Virus record (IMG/VR): IMGVR_UViG_2548876860_000011
Coordinates: 1 to 8,436 of that record
Origin: a virus
Lineage: Duplodnaviria; Heunggongvirae; Uroviricota; Caudoviricetes
Direction: 5' to 3' (one strand)
DNA: 8,436 bases
Positions 1 to 7,828 of the stretch are shown here, one piece after another. Numbering within the stretch: position 1 is the first letter of the stretch; every line of letters begins with the position of its first letter. The notes under the pieces were generated by a model. The model searched no databases. It saw only the letters and a program-made list of their open reading frames with translations, and was not told the DNA's origin. Both the position numbers and the translations under genes were made by a program.

Positions 1-216
1 ATGGCTGAAATGAAAAAAATATCTTTGGTTTCTGAAGTCAATACCTACATCAATACCCATCAGTGGCCTGGCAAAGCTGCTATTGGTCGTCTGAAAGGCG
101 AGGAACTGGCGCAATATAATTTGTGGCTGGATTATCTGGACGCACTGGAGCTGATCGATACTTCCGGTGCGCCAGATATTGAATGGCCTACGCCTCCGGC
201 AGTTCAGGCCAGATGA
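1..216 (+). CDS. tail fibre assembly protein, C-terminal portion (probably 5'-truncated by the window edge; alternative cassette of the invertible segment)
   Basis: The 71-aa ORF ends ...LWLDYLDALELIDTSGAPDIEWPTPPAVQAR, which parallels the C-terminus of the 197-aa Tfa on the opposite strand (...LNAVLDYIDAVTATDTSTAPDVIWPELPEA). The two ORFs converge and overlap at 188-216, as U/U' genes do in Mu G-segment-type inversion regions. Tfa proteins are normally much longer than 71 aa, so the ATG at position 1 is likely an internal Met. Confidence 0.5.
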   Translation: MAEMKKISLVSEVNTYINTHQWPGKAAIGRLKGEELAQYNLWLDYLDALELIDTSGAPDIEWPTPPAVQAR

Positions 217-781
217 CATCCGGCGCGGTGCTGGTATCTGTTGCCGTCACCGCGTCAATGTAATCCAGCACAGCGTTAAGTCTGGTTGTTTCTGCCTGCG
301 TCAGTTTATGTCCGGCCTGCAATTTCAGTTGAATCAGACTGATGGAAGCCATTGCTGCATCAATCAGTGACTGGCGCTGTGCTTCTGCCGCGTCTACTGC
401 GGCACCGTGTTGTGCCTCAGTATCTGTCACCCATTTCTCACCATCCCATTTATCATATGGCGTTAACGGTGAAAGCGTGACATAACCGTTTTTGATGGCA
501 CCGATATAACCCACTGTAACAGCAGCACCATTTTCGATTGAGTAAACAGTCTCATTGCGATGGTCTTCTTCATGGCTCCATCCCTTACCTGTAAATACTG
601 CCACTTTTCCCGGAATGTTTTCGCCCGGGTCAATACCAGTGGAACAGGCGGGCATACTTACGCCAGTATTAATATATTCATCAGACCAGCCCGTATACTC
701 AGATGTTTCAGCATCATAATAAAAACAACGCATATCGCCCGGCACTGTAGCCAGCCCATTTTCATCAAAAACAGGTTTCAT
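188..781 (-). CDS. phage tail fibre assembly protein (Tfa family)
   Basis: 197-aa ORF. Its ATG (779-781) overlaps the stop of the upstream tail-fibre ORF (TAATG on the minus strand), which suggests translational coupling. The C-terminal motif matches the Tfa family. Position next to a tail-fibre C-terminal cassette and a pin invertase gene matches e14/Mu/P1 architecture. Confidence 0.8.
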   Translation of the reverse strand: MKPVFDENGLATVPGDMRCFYYDAETSEYTGWSDEYINTGVSMPACSTGIDPGENIPGKVAVFTGKGWSHEEDHRNETVYSIENGAAVTVGYIGAIKNGYVTLSPLTPYDKWDGEKWVTDTEAQHGAAVDAAEAQRQSLIDAAMASISLIQLKLQAGHKLTQAETTRLNAVLDYIDAVTATDTSTAPDVIWPELPEA

Positions 782-1275
782 TATTTAGCCCTCACCAGAA
801 AGTTAAATGCAATATTTCGCGGTCTGACAGCAACAAAATTCACACCATCACCCACCGAGTTACTGGTGAAATTAAATCGTGAAAATCCTGGCTGATTTCC
901 GGCGATGCCATCATGAAAGTTAATTGCGTGTCCCGCACCTTCGCCTATATTCCCGGCAAACTGAGAAAAGTTTGTAGCGGCCTGCCAGCTTAATAATTCG
1001 CGACCACCGTCTGCACCTCGCCCGTCATCCCAGATACGAATGAAATCACCGCGGGCTTCAGGTAATACCAGCGAAGGAAACACTTTCGCCAGCACAGGGT
1101 AATCAGAGGCAGAAAATTTCGTCCCGTTGAACTTCAAAAACACCATACTGGACCAGCTGTCGATTACAGTATTTGGCATTGCGGCGGAGGGCCAGAAGAA
1201 TGGAACGCCAATAGCTGGAGCACCTTCTACCAAACCAACGTTTACGAAAATGAATATTTCAGGTGCAAATGGCAT
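781..1275 (-). CDS. tail fibre protein C-terminal variable-domain cassette (promoterless, silent in this orientation of the invertible segment)
   Basis: 164-aa ORF, Gly/Asn-rich as in tail-fibre receptor-binding tips. No room exists for a constant N-terminal part, because pin starts at 1305 on the other strand. A hix/gix-like crossover site lies inside its 5' end (1225-1250), so the ATG at 1275 is probably not a real start. Equivalent to stfE' of e14. Confidence 0.65.
   Translation of the reverse strand: MPFAPEIFIFVNVGLVEGAPAIGVPFFWPSAAMPNTVIDSWSSMVFLKFNGTKFSASDYPVLAKVFPSLVLPEARGDFIRIWDDGRGADGGRELLSWQAATNFSQFAGNIGEGAGHAINFHDGIAGNQPGFSRFNFTSNSVGDGVNFVAVRPRNIAFNFLVRAK
1225..1250. other. site-specific recombination crossover site for the Pin/Hin/Gin invertase (hix/gix/pix-like)
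   Basis: TTCTACCAAACCAACGTTTACGAAAA is a 26-bp imperfect inverted repeat with the conserved AAACC-NN-(G/C)GTTT centre. Compare hixL TTCTTGAAAACCAAGGTTTTTGATAA as remembered. It sits about 55 bp upstream of pin and inside the 5' end of the tail-fibre variable ORF, where these sites normally lie. Confidence 0.55.
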
Positions 1276-1304
1276 GCTCCCGGCTTTTAGCGATGGGATT
1301 GATC

Positions 1305-1856
1305 ATGCTTATAGGCTATGTACGGGTGTCAACAAATGACCAGAACACAGCATTGCAAAGAAACGCGCTCGAGTGTGCAGGATGTGAACTGATTTTCGAA
1401 GATAAGATCAGCGGTAAGGTGTCCGACAGACCAGGATTAAAAAAAGTGCTCAGGACGCTATCAGAAGGCGATACGCTGGTGGTATGGAAGCTGGATCGCC
1501 TCGGTCGCAGCATGCGGCATCTTGTCGTGCTGGTCGAAGAAATGAGGGAGCGAGGGGTAAACTTCCGTAGCCTGACCGACAGTATAGATACCTCAACACC
1601 AATGGGGCGCTTTTTCTTTCATGTCATGGGGGCGCTTGCCGAGATGGAAAGAGAGCTTATTGTTGAGCGAACACGGGCTGGCTTAGCTGCTGCGCGCGAA
1701 GATGGTCGGATCGGCGGCAGACGACCAAAGTTAACCGCAGAAGAGTGGGCTCAGGCTGGAAGGTTGATTGCTGCAGGTGAGTCTAGAAAACGTGTGGCTA
1801 TAATTTATGATGTAGGGGTGTCGACGCTATACAAAAAATTTCCTGCGCAGCGTTGA
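1305..1856 (+). CDS. pin: serine recombinase, DNA invertase of the Pin/Hin/Gin/Cin family
   Basis: 184-aa product MLIGYVRVSTNDQ... with the catalytic Ser in VRVSTNDQ, the conserved LVVWKLDRLGRS and SLTDSIDTSTPMGRFFFHVMGALAEMERELIVERT blocks, and a C-terminal HTH (VAIIYDVGVSTLYKK). The ORF track starts at an upstream GTG (1263), but the ATG at 1305 gives the canonical N-terminus. Confidence 0.9.
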   Translation: MLIGYVRVSTNDQNTALQRNALECAGCELIFEDKISGKVSDRPGLKKVLRTLSEGDTLVVWKLDRLGRSMRHLVVLVEEMRERGVNFRSLTDSIDTSTPMGRFFFHVMGALAEMERELIVERTRAGLAAAREDGRIGGRRPKLTAEEWAQAGRLIAAGESRKRVAIIYDVGVSTLYKKFPAQR

Positions 1857-1984
1857 GAAAACGCCACCGCGTCGTCGTATGCAAGAACGGGCGGCGACGA
1901 ACTGGCGAACGTTCGATAGTGCGAGTATTGAATGATTGCCAGTCACGGCGGATTGTACTTAAGCAATATGACGGTTCAAGGCGT

Positions 1985-2227
1985 TTAATCTGAAACCAGC
2001 CACATATCAGCCTTTTCAAACATTTCCTGAACAGTACGGCTTATCTGTTCCTTCTCATGCTTGCTGGCGTCAGTGTTGATCGCCGGCAGTGTCATCATCG
2101 GTTTTACCCGGACATCAGCATCAGGGAAGACCCGGTGAACCCTCTTAGTCAATTCGCCCAGAATGATATCTTTTGCACCGGGCAGGCCATCAAAATTCCT
2201 TTTGTCATAAACGAGTTCCACGAACAT
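1985..2227 (-). CDS. DinI-family DNA-damage-inducible protein
   Basis: 80 aa, MFVELVYDKRNFDGLPGAKDIILGELTKRVHRVFPD...EKEQISRTVQEMFEKADMWLVSD. This is collinear with E. coli DinI (81 aa, ...KEDKQRISEILQETWESADDWFVSE). RBS AGAGG lies upstream of the ATG at 2227, and a LexA-box-like site sits 16 bp upstream. Confidence 0.8.
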   Translation of the reverse strand: MFVELVYDKRNFDGLPGAKDIILGELTKRVHRVFPDADVRVKPMMTLPAINTDASKHEKEQISRTVQEMFEKADMWLVSD

Positions 2228-2242
2228 TGCTTATTGCCTCTT

Positions 2243-2262
2243 TACTGGATGGATACACAGTG
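2243..2262. promoter_or_regulatory. LexA (SOS) box-like operator in the divergent dinI-like / orf80 intergenic region
   Basis: TACTGGATGGATACACAGTG fits the CTG-N10-CAG core of the LexA consensus TACTGTATATATATACAGTA, with CTGG in place of CTGT. It lies between the divergent starts at 2227 (-) and 2302 (+). Confidence 0.5.
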
Positions 2263-2301
2263 CTTGTGCTGTTTTTTTATCCAGTGTTCAAGAAGGGGTT
2301 A

Positions 2302-2544
2302 ATGATGCCACAACGTAGCGATATTGAAATAGCCTGGCATGCTTCGATACAGCGAGAACCGAATGGCCGGAAGACTGTCACCACACAGCGGTTTGTCCAG
2401 GAACTGGGTAAGGTTAACTGGCACTGGACGATGAAGCAGGCCAACGATTGGATAGAATGTTATGTGACAACATTCCGCGATGTATCAACGCAGGAAGGCG
2501 AGAACCGAACCTTTCAGCTGTTCAATCCAAACGGAGGACTTTAG
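2302..2544 (+). CDS. hypothetical small protein (80 aa), probably SOS-regulated and co-transcribed with the downstream umuD'-like gene
   Basis: ATG at 2302 with AAGGGG RBS 4-10 nt upstream. The stop at 2542-2544 is 2 bp before the umuD'-like ATG. Codon composition is typical of the surrounding genes. No motif recognised by eye. Confidence 0.5.
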   Translation: MMPQRSDIEIAWHASIQREPNGRKTVTTQRFVQELGKVNWHWTMKQANDWIECYVTTFRDVSTQEGENRTFQLFNPNGGL

Positions 2545-2546
2545 CC

Positions 2547-2976
<430 letters not shown>

Positions 2977-3645
2977 TCATATTGGCGTTATTAGTTCGGC
3001 GCCCTGATTTTTCACATTCCCGACGGCACGCGTTACGGCGTGCCATATAAATTTATCAGCCGGTACAACACCGTCGGCTGCAATTTCCGCTGCTTCTTTC
3101 CCTCCAACATCCTGCCTCATCCATTCACGCGCGGCTTCCGGTAGCAGTACCAGTGGTCGTCTGTCGTGAATATCAACCAGTCCTTTGTCAGCTGCAGCTG
3201 TAACTATCAGGAAACCTTCTGCTTCATCTCCACGTTCGAATGGTGTGCTGCCGATCGCCGCCATAAAAATCGGCTGACCGTCTGCCCGGTGAATAAAGTA
3301 GGGTTGTTTTTGGTCGCCTTCCTTTTTCCACTCATACCATCCATCAGCAAAGCAAATTGCGCGGCCATGCTGCCAGAGTGGTTTAAACATTCTGCTGGTG
3401 GCAGCAGTTTCAGACCGTGCATTAATGAGCGGCGGTTTATCCCACCAACCGGGGGCGTATCCCCAGATAACTGGATCAAGATGCAACTGCTCATCACGTT
3501 CGCTCAGAAGCAGAACTTTTGTTCCTGGCGCTACGTTGAATCTTCCGATGGGTTCTGGATCGTATGGAATATCGCGTTCTGATTCATCAGCGAGAAGGGC
3601 AAGATAATCTTCACGGGTCATTGACTGTGAAAAGCGTCCACACAT
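2977..3645 (-). CDS. SOS-response-associated peptidase (SRAP, YedK family; abasic-site processing protein)
   Basis: 222-aa product begins MCGRF (the Cys2 nucleophile hallmark of SRAP) and is collinear with E. coli YedK as remembered (...DPEPIGRFNVAPGTKVLLL...WGYAPGWWDKPPLINARSETAATSRMFKPLWQHGRAICFADGWYEWKK...). Strong RBS GGAGG precedes the ATG at 3645. It is convergent with the umuD'-like gene and abuts it with no spacer. Confidence 0.85.
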   Translation of the reverse strand: MCGRFSQSMTREDYLALLADESERDIPYDPEPIGRFNVAPGTKVLLLSERDEQLHLDPVIWGYAPGWWDKPPLINARSETAATSRMFKPLWQHGRAICFADGWYEWKKEGDQKQPYFIHRADGQPIFMAAIGSTPFERGDEAEGFLIVTAAADKGLVDIHDRRPLVLLPEAAREWMRQDVGGKEAAEIAADGVVPADKFIWHAVTRAVGNVKNQGAELITPI

Positions 3646-3879
3646 AGAAACCTCCAGCCGTATGTCAGACTGAAAGTATAGGGCAGTTAGAAAAAGTGGT
3701 GCACACCGTTAAAGATTTAAAAGGAGCATGTAAGGTAAATCGGAATGATGGTTTTGTGAATTGATGAATTCCGAAAGTGAAAAAGATACTTAATCATTGT
3801 GTGCTGGCGATACGGGGGCAACATTTGACGGGGTTTTTCCCCTGTAATTCCCCATTGCTTCCCCGTTCAGAAAACAGGC

Positions 3880-3904
3880 AAAAAAACCAGCCGTAACAGG
3901 CTGG
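3880..3904 (-). terminator. rho-independent terminator (native tRNA terminator carried in repeat copy 1; also terminates the 4043-4828 gene)
   Basis: On the minus strand: CCAGCC-tgttac-GGCTGG hairpin followed by T7. Confidence 0.7.
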
Positions 3905-3919
3905 TTCTTCGAGGATTTT

Positions 3920-3964
3920 TGGTCGGCACGAGAGGATTTGAACCTCCGCCCCCCGACACCCCAT
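3920..3964 (-). pseudogene. tRNA-Pro 3' fragment (about 45 nt: anticodon-proximal part, T-arm, acceptor 3' strand and CCA); not a complete tRNA gene
   Basis: Minus-strand sequence ATGGGGTGTCGGGGGGCGGAGGTTCAAATCCTCTCGTGCCGACCA has T-stem/loop GGAGG-TTCAAAT-CCTCT, acceptor 3' strand, discriminator A and CCA. It matches the 3' portion of E. coli proL tRNA-Pro(GGG) as remembered, with one mismatch. The 5' half is absent; flanking sequence diverges after 3964. Confidence 0.7.
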
Positions 3965-4042
3965 AGTGTCGTGCTAATATTCTGATGGCCTATATGCGTC
4001 TACAGTAAGTTGATAGCATCATTCGTCGGTCGCTTCGTAGTC

Positions 4043-4828
4043 TCACATACGGATAAAATTTTTTCTATTGATTTTGTCTCTATCAGAGCCATAAATGATG
4101 GTTGCAAAAAAACGACCTAATTCAAGATGGTGGAAGTGATTATCTTTTGCTTGAACTGTCATTGAGTCTAATATGTTATAGATGCATTCTATGATATGAA
4201 TAACTAATAAAGTGCGATAACCAGCAAGCATTTCACTTCTTTTAAGTAAATAATTTAAATCCCCTGCAGAGTTTATATGGTTTCTGTCTTCATCATAATA
4301 TCCAAGCACATAGCATGGCAGTGTTTCACCATAGCTTCGGTATTGCTCGCATTTTTTATCAATTATATTTTTTTGTCTTTTTGTTAATATTTTGTCGTAA
4401 ATGCTCTTATCGATTTCATTATACCATTGCTTCATGGGATCATTGTCGTTGTCATTAGTAATGAAATCAATATTACTATATCTTGATGAATTTGCAAAAT
4501 TAGTTAACAACTCCATCACTCTGTAGTGAATTTCATTTAAGCCAGAGGGAGAATCAACTCTCTCAATGACTAGGTTAAATAACTTGCTTAAGTTATGACC
4601 GTAATCTCTTAATTTTTTGCGTGATGTATATTTTCCATTTTTATTATAATCATCAAGCATAAGGCAAAGTTTCATAAGCCTTTCTAATCCTAAACTGATG
4701 CCGGATAATGCTTGAAAATACAATCCTCTACTTGCAAAATTTGCTTTCCTTAGGGAAGTGAGCCCTATGCCTAATAATTGTCTTGAAAAGTCAACCTCAT
4801 CAACAAATCTTCTGTATTTTTCATCCAT
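4043..4828 (-). CDS. hypothetical protein (AT-rich cargo gene; possible phage-defence/abortive-infection candidate, function unknown)
   Basis: The ORF track gives 4043-4858 (271 aa), but position 4856-4858 is a TTG with no RBS. The in-frame ATG at 4826-4828 has GAGG 6-9 nt upstream, giving 261 aa starting MDEKYRRFVDEVDF. GC content is roughly 30%, against roughly 50% in the prophage genes to the left. No catalytic motif recognised by eye. Confidence 0.6.
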   Translation of the reverse strand: MDEKYRRFVDEVDFSRQLLGIGLTSLRKANFASRGLYFQALSGISLGLERLMKLCLMLDDYNKNGKYTSRKKLRDYGHNLSKLFNLVIERVDSPSGLNEIHYRVMELLTNFANSSRYSNIDFITNDNDNDPMKQWYNEIDKSIYDKILTKRQKNIIDKKCEQYRSYGETLPCYVLGYYDEDRNHINSAGDLNYLLKRSEMLAGYRTLLVIHIIECIYNILDSMTVQAKDNHFHHLELGRFFATIIYGSDRDKINRKNFIRM

Positions 4829-4892
4829 AAAAACCTCAGTCAGCCAATTAATATTCAAGAATGATTTCTATAAAGAACTAATCTAGTTAAAT

Positions 4893-4928
4893 CATCTGAT
4901 GTAATTAGTATTACAATACCATCAGACG
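4893..4928. promoter_or_regulatory. nested palindrome upstream of the 4043-4828 gene (candidate operator)
   Basis: CATCTGATG-(18 nt)-CATCAGACG inverted repeat, with an inner GTAAT-tagt-ATTAC palindrome, centred about 80 bp upstream of the ATG at 4828. Confidence 0.3.
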
Positions 4929-5014
4929 ACATTGAAGCAGTATTGTGCCTTATCTACCCTATGTACGTCCATTGATAAAAATCTGCGCTTTTCGCAGTGG
5001 GGTCAACCGTAAGC

Positions 5015-5136
5015 TAATTTCCCCATTGCTTCCCCGTTCAGAAAACAGGCAAAAAAAACCAGCCGTAACAGGCTGGTTCTTCGAGGATTTTTGGTCAGCA
5101 CGAGAGGATTTGAACCTCCGCCCCCCGACACCCCAT
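5015..5136 (-). repeat. direct repeat copy 2 (~122 bp): flank + intrinsic terminator + tRNA-Pro-like fragment
   Basis: About 97% identical to 3845-3964. Confidence 0.9.
5051..5076 (-). terminator. rho-independent terminator (copy 2; downstream of the 5333-6301 gene on the minus strand)
   Basis: CCAGCC-tgttac-GGCTGG hairpin followed by T8 on the minus strand. Confidence 0.7.
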
Positions 5137-5150
5137 GGCGGTGATCTACC
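5092..5150 (-). pseudogene. degenerate tRNA-Pro-like fragment (about 60 nt from the D-loop region to CCA; 5' part not recognisable)
   Basis: Same T-arm and acceptor 3' end as copy 1, with G to A in the acceptor strand. The match to tRNA-Pro extends further (GGTAGATCACCGCCATGGGG vs GGTAGCGCACCGTCATGGGG) with mismatches. No convincing 5' acceptor strand. Confidence 0.6.
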
Positions 5151-5332
5151 TTCTCATCAAGGGTAACCATGTGCCAGAAGCAGCCCTTGCGCACATTGGA
5201 TGGGTATCAAATAATGAAGTAGGTCAACTTTATTAAATAAAATTGTGTTGGTTCAGATGATCGAATGGGAATGAATAGTTTATTACTTTTGGTGACCGCA
5301 AGCGCGATCACCTTCGATTTGGTGGCAATTAC

Positions 5333-6301
5333 CTAGAATGATGCACAATCTTTAAGCTCTTTTTCTAGTTGTTCAACCAAGTCACAGCATTTTTTGATAA
5401 CATCTTTAACTGACTCTGAATCTAACTTATGAAAATTACCATTTTTTGTTTTACCTGCTCGATGAACTAAGTCATGCCTAATTAACACGCTTTTATAAAC
5501 TTCTGTGAAAACAGGGAATTTAATACCAAAGGTATCTCGATACATGCCACTTACTTTTGGCAGATTATGATAAAGAACACTCTTCATAGACTCTATCGCT
5601 TGAGACTCTATTTGTTCATGCCTTATAAATAATTCAGAAAGTAAGAATTTTTCTGTATTGTAATCTTTGAAGGTTTCAACAAAATTTCTCAAATTAGTTT
5701 GGCTACCATGAATTAGGGAAATAAATCTGTCACATAAATATGTTTCCAAGGAAGTTATTGTATTGGCATATAGCATATACGATATTTGTATTTGTAAAGT
5801 GCTATCAATTTTTAACTGAGCATCATTTAGTTTTATGGCGTTCTGCATACTATTTTGGAATGTCATATAGACATCTCGTTCAGATAGCGTTCGATCATCA
5901 GAGTACTGCATATCAATAACATCTAGAATGCGCTGTTCGATTAATGAAGGTCTATTCAACTGTAATATATCTATAGTCGCATGTCCTCGCTCAGTTAAAC
6001 CTTCTAAATATCCATTTTTATTTTGTTTCATATGTTCTGAAAAACTTTCATTTAAAGGATTTAGAAGTAATGGTTTGCCATTTTCATCGAGAGGAAACTG
6101 ATCTTTTTTAATCATGCTACATGCCTTACAAGCGATGAGCAGGTTGTCTGTAGCATCTTGGAAGTCAGTATACTTTGATTTTGGGAAAAAACGATCAACA
6201 TCCGCCATCAATGGTTCATAAAGTTTAGTGCCACAGTAAGCACATTGATGCTTAAACTTCTCCCATAGTTCAAGTTTAAACGTTTTATAATTCTTATTCA
6301 T
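5333..6301 (-). CDS. hypothetical protein with N-terminal HNH-like Cys-rich motif and C-terminal HEPN-like Rx4H motif (candidate nuclease/RNase toxin or abortive-infection effector)
   Basis: 322-aa ORF with ATG at 6299-6301 and AAGGAA RBS. N-terminus: CAYCG...DVDRFFPKSKY...DNLLIACKACSMIKKD, an HNH-type CxxC...D-x-D-[H]...N...CxxC layout, but with Arg where the catalytic His normally sits. C-terminus: SVLIRHDLVHRAGK, i.e. R-x4-H as in HEPN RNase motifs. Very AT-rich. Occupies the slot next to icdC where K-12 e14 carries mcrA. Confidence 0.7.
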   Translation of the reverse strand: MNKNYKTFKLELWEKFKHQCAYCGTKLYEPLMADVDRFFPKSKYTDFQDATDNLLIACKACSMIKKDQFPLDENGKPLLLNPLNESFSEHMKQNKNGYLEGLTERGHATIDILQLNRPSLIEQRILDVIDMQYSDDRTLSERDVYMTFQNSMQNAIKLNDAQLKIDSTLQIQISYMLYANTITSLETYLCDRFISLIHGSQTNLRNFVETFKDYNTEKFLLSELFIRHEQIESQAIESMKSVLYHNLPKVSGMYRDTFGIKFPVFTEVYKSVLIRHDLVHRAGKTKNGNFHKLDSESVKDVIKKCCDLVEQLEKELKDCASF

Positions 6302-6745
6302 TGAATAGTTCCTTTATATTCTTGACTTGATTGTTTGTTTGCCAATTTAAGCCAAAGACACACGACTTTAATTGGGCTTGAATCATAGTTATATGTAATC
6401 TATTAAGCAAACACTTTTCATTAATAGCATGAGATAACGCTCAATTCTTTATTTTCCGGGAGTGTGTAACTTCATATCCACCTCTCACTCACAGCGTACG
6501 TTATTGGCGAAAAATTTAGTTAAGCCATTGATAGTTTGTGAAAACACGCATGATTTAAAATCCCTTTGCCGTGAAGGGGCTGATAGGTACAGGCACTTGT
6601 TTTTGCCCTCTAAAACGGTTATCAAAACCAAAAAACATACATTGATAATCAATAGGTTAGGGGAAAGATAAAAGCCAGTTGATTTACAATAAAATTATAG
6701 GATTATTTTTATTTATCATGCGGTTGTATATGAACCATCTAACTA

Positions 6746-6910
6746 CTGTTACGCCATATGGGCTGGACTGAAGCCGCAGACCTGATTGTTAAAGGTATGG
6801 AAGGCGCAATCAATGCGAAGACCGTAACCTATGACTTCGAGCGTCTGATGGAAGGCGCTAAACTGCTGAAATGTTCAGAATTTGGTGATGCGATCATCAA
6901 GAACATGTAA
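6746..6910 (+). pseudogene. icdC: displaced 3'-terminal fragment of icd (isocitrate dehydrogenase), the att-site duplication at the right end of the e14-like element
   Basis: In-frame translation [55 protein letters not shown] matches the Icd C-terminus as remembered. An in-frame stop precedes it at 6740-6742 and no icd-like coding sequence lies upstream (AT-rich intergenic DNA). The length (about 165 nt) matches the icdC remnant of K-12. Confidence 0.8.
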
Positions 6911-6933
6911 TCACTACATGTGTTTAATATTGC

Positions 6934-6967
6934 AACGGGCGTATAACACGCCCGTTGTTTTATTTAT
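6934..6967 (+). terminator. rho-independent terminator of icd
   Basis: AACGGGCG-tataaca-CGCCCGTT perfect 8-bp stem followed by GTTTTATTTAT, beginning 24 nt after the icd stop. Confidence 0.75.
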
Positions 6968-7773: not shown

Positions 7774-7828
7774 ACATGTGCGTTAAGTATTGAAACGGGC
7801 GTATGGCACACCCGTTGTTTTTATAAAT
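7774..7828. repeat. second, diverged copy of the icd terminator region (hairpin AACGGGCG-tatggca-CACCCGTT + T-run)
   Basis: ACATGTGCGTTAAGTATTGAAACGGGCGTATGGCACACCCGTTGTTTTTAT is about 80% identical to 6917-6967. It lies between iraM and ycgX, oriented as a plus-strand terminator although both neighbours are minus-strand genes. Confidence 0.6.

Follow-up and report, generated by a model that had tools for sequence, protein, structure and literature searches.

The window analysed here is a stretch of 8,436 nucleotides (IMG/VR record IMGVR_UViG_2548876860_000011, Caudoviricetes) that covers the right end of an icd-integrated, e14-like prophage, and the subject of the analysis is a gene of 261 codons located on its minus strand between two direct repeats. 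Sequence comparison and structure modelling indicated that the encoded protein has a HEPN fold with a variant, not the canonical, set of residues, and that it is most likely a prophage-encoded, self-contained effector of abortive infection or superinfection exclusion. The gene was acquired horizontally and resides in a variable cargo region by the prophage attachment site. The repeats on either side are vestigial phage attachment sites (attP) brought in from other phages. The reading as a whole, that of an accessory solo HEPN gene for abortive infection or exclusion situated between inert attP relics, is one that we favour with moderate confidence.

Fold and conserved residues of the protein

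The initial annotation had left the fold unassigned and named remote homology search and structure prediction as ways to check it. Both led to a variant HEPN fold, although the curated libraries contributed sub-threshold matches only. The AlphaFold2 model, built from the family alignment, was confident and all-helical, with a predicted local distance difference test score (pLDDT) of 88.3 and a predicted template modelling score (pTM) of 0.89. The best sequence and structure matches belonged to the HEPN-T/AF0298-like/AbiV-type group, and SO_3166 and HEPN/MNT were matched as well. The HEPN core corresponded roughly to residues 1–150. Since Foldseek gave no significant whole-chain match in the PDB and viral structure libraries, the C-terminal ~110 residues, which form a helical half in the model, are predicted to be specific to the family.

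Against the Pfam HEPN model PF05168, the window protein scored E = 0.17 and 12.5 bits, with the cutoff being 22 bits. The same model matched 9 of 23 close homologues at E ≤ 1, with a best value of 1.6e-5, and one close homologue carries a precomputed PF05168 hit; among the distant members, 1 of 121 matched it at E ≤ 0.01. When the family alignments were compared with Pfam, NCBIfam, PADLOC, and PHROGs, a weak HEPN match was obtained and nothing else exceeded the threshold. PADLOC 2.0 applied to the 121 family members gave only three chance-level matches, and from the PDB sequences the two family profiles retrieved either no match or noise (e.g., casein kinase). An allele of the protein is listed in one UniRef entry as “AbiV family abortive infection protein”; however, the Pfam AbiV model PF18728 (HEPN_AbiV) was not matched by the window protein.

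Conservation was examined on a motif alignment of 121 members, mostly 22–32% identical to the query. R50 and Y117 were present in all 121 sequences, E49, K53, and R116 in 120 each, and H78 in 119, while position 121 was occupied by Asp or Asn in 110. The full list of essentially invariant residues comprised E11, G22, G47, E49, R50, K53, H78, F111, R116, Y117, N119, and W135. In the model, E49 and K53 are located on the long second helix (residues 34–64), H78 lies in a helical insert ahead of the third core helix, and R116 directly follows that helix. E49 and K53 represent the Ex3K of helix 2, and Ex3[KR] is found in helix 2 of many HEPN families (Anantharaman et al. 2013, PMC3710099). In the superfamily, the Rx4-6H motif is located at the end of helix 3 (PMC3710099). 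The present family has no His at the corresponding place, as the position five residues after R116 was never His in the 121 members. Asp replaces the motif His in several cases in HEPN-T (PF05168), and the AbiV and AF0298-like proteins have no motif His and possess a second conserved His N-terminal to the motif, which is a possible alternative active site (PMC3710099). Since this substitution is documented in HEPN-T and AbiV-like families, the missing His does not bar the protein from the HEPN superfamily. Residue by residue, the pattern fits the description of the HEPN-T/AbiV variant point by point, and the active-site-type residues would be the Ex3K pair (E49, K53), the His of the insert (H78), and R116 followed by Asp or Asn.

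A HEPN protein may also be non-catalytic and serve as a nucleotide-, ligand-, or RNA-binding module with a regulatory or lysogenic-conversion role for the prophage. We consider this unlikely for the present protein. Positions E11, E49, R50, K53, H78, R116, and N119 are near-invariant across sequences only 22–32% identical, which is more typical of a catalytic site, and the neighbours of the homologues are repeatedly defence genes, as described below.

Distribution of the family, acquisition of the gene, and contexts of the homologues

The gene had initially been described as an orphan, which was contradicted by the searches. We found 26 close clusters in Enterobacterales, Aeromonas, and Pasteurellaceae, and a profile search recovered 1132 family representatives at 50% clustering, of which 643 scored below 1e-10. 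The family spans Bacteroidota, Alpha- and Gammaproteobacteria, Actinomycetota, and an archaeon, and every member is annotated as hypothetical. A locus search with the close-family alignment added one further genome locus and three viral contigs.

In Klebsiella and Xenorhabdus, the gene and ~80 bp of upstream DNA are 76–78% identical to the window copy and occupy quite different prophage slots. DNA homology to other species spans only positions 4042–4905, and the flanking repeats are absent there. The low GC content reported earlier was also evident: 31.8% in the gene, and 28.6% at third codon positions, against 47–51% in the tail, pin, dinI, and SOS-response-associated peptidase (SRAP) genes. 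The composition, together with the occurrence of the same gene and upstream DNA in unlike prophage slots, agrees with the earlier proposal of a horizontally acquired single-gene unit. Thus, the gene was acquired by horizontal transfer.

Calling of open reading frames (ORFs) reproduced the frame at 4043–4858 on the minus strand. Within it, the ATG at 4828, preferred in the initial annotation, is upheld as the start because nearly all full-length homologues are 259–267 aa long and open with MDEKY; the RefSeq protein is also 261 aa. The TTG at 4858 was ruled out by the N-termini of the homologues. The gene is preceded by a GAGG ribosome-binding site, and GAGG or GAG is also kept upstream in the Klebsiella and Xenorhabdus copies. 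A palindrome had been noted further upstream. It is present, with 12 of 15 arm positions complementary and an inner pair GTAAT/ATTAC, but it proved only marginally unusual, since 3.2% of shuffled sequences reached an equal score, and its right half is partly common to the closest Klebsiella copy only. A possible role is that of an operator or 5′ untranslated region element, although the significance is marginal. The 25-aa ORF at 4855–4932 had neither an evident ribosome-binding site nor conservation and was rejected as spurious. With its own ribosome-binding site and a terminator on either side, the gene is therefore probably monocistronic in the window.

The homologues were found in diverse surroundings. 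In Klebsiella michiganensis, the gene lies in a P2-like prophage between tail genes S and V; in Proteus mirabilis, it follows gpD/ogr where a P2-like prophage ends at its attachment site, and tRNA-Gly is ~1.2 kb away. The Gallibacterium homologue belongs to a type I restriction-modification (R-M) operon, where it is placed between hsdS and hsdR with a 4-nt overlap with hsdS. The Caulobacter gene, on an island at tRNA-Ser that is rich in integrases, directly follows a P2-type Old nuclease (1.5e-66), and that of Marinifilaceae directly follows a Lamassu LmuB gene (1e-157). In Micromonospora, the homologue adjoins DruA (1e-125) within an integrative conjugative element, and in Pantoea a PDC-S31/DUF2971 candidate defence gene (1e-54). 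The Aeromonas homologue is located between two filamentous prophages and adjoins a DUF2971 gene, the Xenorhabdus one is near hicAB and phage remnants, and the Alteromonas one is among insertion sequence (IS) elements. The metagenomic lineage P0068 has an ordinary-looking neighbourhood. Taken together, the contexts look like the pattern of a mobile, stand-alone defence-island gene. As a separate observation, the presence of the DUF2971/PDC-S31 candidate defence gene beside the homologue in both Pantoea (locus L035, 3253–3912) and Aeromonas (L013, 5433–6350), two unrelated contexts, may point to a recurring association.

No MNT or other conserved partner gene was found in the window or in 12 other contexts. 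This bears on whether the protein may be the toxin of an addiction or toxin-antitoxin-like module (e.g., type III, with an RNA antitoxin, a scheme proposed for AbiV) whose main effect would lie in stabilising the prophage end and not in phage defence. HEPN proteins are common toxins of such modules, as the SO_3166 and HEPN/MNT matches recall, and AbiV has been reported to be inhibited by an RNA (bioRxiv 10.1101/2024.05.05.592566). The partly conserved ~80-bp upstream region with the palindrome, which travels with the gene, might be seen in the same light; however, it is not conserved past the closest relative, and upstream there is only the 25-aa ORF mentioned above. With no partner gene in any context, we regard the toxin explanation as very unlikely.

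From the HEPN fold, the variant motifs of catalytic type, and the defence-gene neighbours of the homologues, we infer a role in defence, and only to this extent is the defence or abortive-infection function suggested in the initial annotation supported. The relevant neighbours are Old, LmuB, DruA, PDC-S31, and type I R-M genes, to which the cargo slots of P2-like prophages can be added. The window slot itself holds mcrA in K-12 and a gene of the HNH-HEPN type here. Several points weigh against this interpretation. The window protein is below the Pfam HEPN threshold, and PADLOC, PHROGs, NCBIfam, and the PDB sequences yielded no match to it. It lacks the His of the canonical Rx4-6H, and RNase activity is not assured. 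A consensus scan did not find a sigma-70 promoter upstream of the gene. The sample of contexts was small and non-random, with about a dozen loci, and the abundant lineage P0068 is found in ordinary-looking surroundings. The gene is a reasonable candidate for phage defence of a known type, namely an accessory gene for a solo HEPN protein at a hotspot of prophage cargo, and would not strongly surprise a specialist.

A working scheme may be proposed on this basis. In the lysogen, the effector would be kept silent until an infecting phage activates it; it would then cleave or sequester host or phage RNA. The family-specific C-terminal half is a candidate module for sensing or oligomerisation. Should the protein prove to be a functional defence effector, the catalogue of such systems would gain a widespread family of single-gene HEPN proteins (~1100 clusters at 50% identity, in bacteria and at least one archaeon), for which there is no Pfam or PADLOC model. 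The protein would also allow the non-canonical HEPN active site (upstream His and R-x4-D), predicted in 2013 and little studied, to be put to the test.

Flanking repeats and the cargo end of the prophage

Table 1. Features of the window, beginning with the gene under study and its surroundings
Feature	Position	Strand	Remarks
Target gene	4043–4828	minus	261 aa; predicted stand-alone HEPN-fold protein; start ATG 4828
GAGG ribosome-binding site	4834–4837	minus	Read in the sequence; 5 nt upstream of ATG 4828
Imperfect nested palindrome	4892–4929		64–101 bp upstream of the start; arms 4892–4906 and 4915–4929
Small terminator-like hairpin	4983–4997	minus	Consensus scan only; between repeat B and the upstream region of the gene
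Repeat A, vestigial attP	3842–3964	minus	tRNA 3′ half 3920–3964; terminator 3881–3910; phage arm running on into the SRAP gene
Repeat B, second attP copy	5013–5136	minus	tRNA 3′ half 5092–5136; same terminator hairpin ~5053–5082
Tail-fibre and assembly genes	188–1275		
Pin invertase	1263–1856		
dinI	1985–2227		
umuD-like gene, frameshifted	ORFs 2448–2976		Between dinI and the SRAP gene
SRAP gene	2977–3645	minus	Pfam SRAP 6.8e-51
PtuB-like HNH gene	5333–6301	minus	322 aa; PADLOC PtuB 1.9e-23; mREase_IV 4e-12
icdC, duplicated 3′ end of icd	6758–6910	plus	ORF and RefSeq annotation in carriers and K-12

The two direct repeats of ~120 bp recorded in the initial annotation were recovered at the positions listed in Table 1, with 119 of 125 aligned positions identical. 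The gene had been placed exactly between them. It is indeed bracketed, and no other gene lies between the repeats, but it is not flush with them: 78 bp separate repeat A from the stop codon and 184 bp separate the ATG from repeat B. The tRNA fragment reported in the repeats proved to be the 3′ 45 nt of tRNA-Pro(GGG). Read on the minus strand, each repeat starts in the anticodon loop and passes through the last 45 nt of the tRNA to a strong intrinsic terminator with a T-run and ~40 more bases. ARAGORN called no tRNA in the window. In copy B, a decayed tRNA-like stretch continues to about 5150–5158 (the BLAST match to the tRNA-Pro locus reaches 5150), and a sub-threshold Rfam tRNA match at 5103–5158 supports a decayed D-arm and anticodon arm in this copy only. 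The assignment of the source to proM was found to be wrong, as ARAGORN identified the tRNA at the real locus adjoining yejM as tRNA-Pro(GGG), i.e., proL.

The free phages Flotzy and Eeyore have the order tail fibre, (invertase), DinI, UmuD-like, repeat segment, and integrase, and integrases of the Flotzy/Eeyore type occur among E. coli phages. E. coli strain 100181 carries a related prophage at proL, the end of which consists of umuDC, SRAP, the arm, and tRNA-Pro, followed by yejM. Because the segment precedes the integrase in the phages and forms the proL junction in strain 100181, the repeats are best read as vestigial attP sites left by phages whose integration target is tRNA-Pro(GGG). In related prophages integrated at tRNA-Pro, the SRAP gene is the last gene ahead of the attachment site and defines the native context of repeat A. 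Both attP relics appear to have arrived with the dinI-umuD-SRAP module. No cognate integrase adjoins the repeats in the window, and the window prophage uses icd.

All versions of the repeat share one sequence as far as ...CCCCAT in the anticodon loop, beyond which they part abruptly. In the window, the arm sides of the two copies are ~99% alike, and their far sides are 50% identical compared with a shuffled mean of 49%. The interpretation of the far sides as weakly similar decayed tRNA 5′ halves was rejected, as the similarity of A to B, and of each to the tRNA 5′ half, was at chance level by shuffling; only the S88 copy gave statistically detectable links. Such a sharp boundary at the att core is expected of site-specific recombination, although homologous exchange between related phages could yield it too.

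Other cargo and elements also converge on this att fragment. In S88 (locus L024, 4300–9400), a related prophage carries it amid DUF262 (GmrSD-like), GIY-YIG, and PD-(D/E)XK nuclease genes, with a P2-like integrase and CI coming next; here, too, nuclease-rich cargo is stacked around this att relic. In UTAK-5 (L003, 6200–12300), a satellite-like element with a small terminase, a capsid-protease fusion, a single-stranded DNA-binding protein, and a primase abuts the SRAP-side att arm. Its identity to the tRNA-Pro fragment stops within the acceptor stem, which suggests that a second element reused the same att region.

It had been proposed that the gene is gained or lost as a unit by recombination between the repeats, with comparison across E. 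coli genomes as the check. This was not borne out: no presence/absence variation with repeat-precise boundaries was seen, and homologues elsewhere are without repeats. The full region was present in 8 of 5426 complete E. coli genomes, and the neighbouring HNH gene occurred in exactly the same eight. The order HNH, target gene, SRAP was retained in 24 of 24 contigs read for the exact protein, and the contig tallies of the target and HNH proteins were similar, at about 480 and 495, respectively. Exact-match scans of viral and metagenome collections did not find the predicted deletion junction, although this test was weak, as a control junction, owing to a single-nucleotide polymorphism, missed contigs that carry the locus. 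By contrast, the pin-dinI-umuD′ segment (1236–2753) is present or absent among near-identical contigs. The repeats are, in principle, long and alike enough for RecA-dependent deletion; no such loss was seen, and they are not evidence of current mobility of the gene.

These data also bear on the idea of an integrase-less mobilisable cassette made up of the gene and one att copy, which the integrase of a tRNA-Pro phage would excise in trans as a circle and insert at other attP or attB(proL) sites. The repeats would then still work as recombination sites, in keeping with the initial annotation. One repeat boundary falls exactly at the att core, or crossover point, and the ~99% identity of the copies is confined to the arm side, the other sides being unrelated, as expected of site-specific insertion; the UTAK-5 element abutting the same arm and the S88 fragment amid nuclease cargo point the same way. 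However, no empty site was seen, since 8 of 8 complete genomes with the HNH gene carry the target gene and the order is constant in the contigs, where the two genes are about equally frequent. Moreover, the homologues of other species have no repeats and a DNA homology limited to the gene and its upstream region, no integrase adjoins, and homologous recombination of related phages could give the same structure. A cassette of this kind is thus quite unlikely.

A broader version of this idea is that vestigial attP sites at the cargo end of temperate phages constitute an integron-like stacking platform on which small circles without an integrase, each with one defence gene and an att copy, are inserted and excised by tRNA-Pro-phage integrases in trans, the HEPN gene being a new solo abortive-infection nuclease with a His-upstream/R-x4-D site. 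Such a platform would account for the accumulation of single-gene nuclease cassettes (HEPN, HNH-HEPN, and the DUF262/GIY-YIG/PD-(D/E)XK genes of S88) by the same att fragment. We regard it as a long shot. Under the preferred reading of a solo HEPN gene between inert relics, the attP remnants would mark old recombination joints where single-gene cassettes were stacked, and today the repeats would most plausibly be only terminators insulating each cassette. Their identity matters for annotation, as tRNA-fragment repeats in prophages are easily misread as island boundaries or as signs of current mobility; here they record the assembly of the cargo end of an icd-integrating phage from a tRNA-Pro-integrating relative.

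The gene order in the window is tail, pin, dinI, umuD-like, SRAP, repeat A, target gene, repeat B, HNH, and icdC, after which come the chromosomal iraM and ycgX; icdC is the right attachment-site marker of the e14-like prophage that bears the whole stack. Compared with e14 of K-12, homology ends past pin (~1846) and picks up again at 6612. In K-12, mcrA is the sole content of the interval matching ~1846–6612 of the window, and in a third strain O-antigen-conversion gtr genes occupy the same interval. Because homology to K-12 breaks at these two points and the contents differ elsewhere, the target gene is assigned to a ~4.7-kb variable cargo region (about 1850–6500) by the prophage attachment site. 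The HNH gene of this region has a weak C-terminal RiboL-PSP HEPN match (Pfam 0.012) and holds the position of mcrA in K-12 e14; it is therefore a second HEPN-type single-gene cassette in the same slot.

Several further features of the region were recorded. A (CAGC)n tract of about 12 units (2604–2667) within the frameshifted umuD-like gene could be a slipped-strand on/off switch or the lesion that turned this gene into a pseudogene; in RefSeq, its homologue is marked as a frameshifted S24 peptidase. The segment 1236–2753, which spans pin and dinI and takes in the umuD-like gene with its 5′ part only, is missing in most of the otherwise 96–99.8% identical contigs: L014, L017, L021, L033, and L034 fuse position 1235 straight to 2754, and L036 and the window retain the segment. 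Its joints show no obvious direct repeat. In strain C1 (L001, 6989–9006), an IS421 insertion splits the SRAP gene, intact in the window, beside repeat A. In several E. coli assemblies (L014–L016, L018, and L019, about 2400–3900 in locus coordinates), a lambdoid integrase, an excisionase, and RecT/YqaJ genes come after icdC in place of iraM/ycgX; these arrangements are tandem prophages at icd. Finally, a hairpin-containing direct repeat of 43 nt (84% identical) occurs at 6919–6961, after icdC, and at 7779–7821, ~440 bp past the iraM start (7336) towards ycgX, and the same pair is present in K-12.

Comparison with known systems

With respect to the bracketing repeats, the arrangement resembles tandem att structures and cis-mobilisable elements. 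Direct repeats of a tyrosine-integrase att core, starting at the anticodon-loop crossover point, stand on either side of the gene, and there is no integrase between them. Unlike such elements, both copies are attP-type relics inside a prophage that uses icd, and neither an excision product nor occupied/empty-site polymorphism was found in the genomes, contigs, and junction scans described above; no cognate integrase adjoins the copies.

The Gallibacterium homologue, between hsdS and hsdR and overlapping hsdS, is reminiscent of the restriction-linked anticodon nucleases of the PrrC/RloC type, as prrC has the equivalent position between hsdS and hsdR in the EcoprrI locus. The linkage of HEPN and R-M genes is a recognised theme (PMC3710099). 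The target protein differs from PrrC/RloC in having no ABC-ATPase domain and no canonical Rx4-6H, and the window copy is unlinked to R-M genes.

In its fold, the protein is closest to the HEPN-T (PF05168)/AF0298-like/AbiV-type group, with which it shares, in the model and the alignment, the four-helix core, an insert separating helices 2 and 3, the Ex3K of helix 2, an Arg where helix 3 ends, Asp or Asn in place of the motif His, and a second conserved His located N-terminally. It differs in being about twice as long, with a helical C-terminal half of ~110 residues without a structural match, in scoring below the PF05168 threshold with no match to PF18728, and in the lack of an adjacent nucleotidyltransferase.

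In function, HepS and AbiV may be the closest analogues of the target protein. AbiV is a metal-independent HEPN RNase (bioRxiv 10.1101/2024.05.05.592566), and HepS of the Salmonella prophage Gifsy-1 is a solo HEPN abortive-infection nuclease activated by phage tail-tip proteins (PMC13043305). Like HepS, the gene described here is a single prophage-encoded HEPN gene in an accessory slot with no conserved partner, and by analogy HepS is proposed as a model for it, in which the protein would be inactive by default and triggered by the infecting phage.

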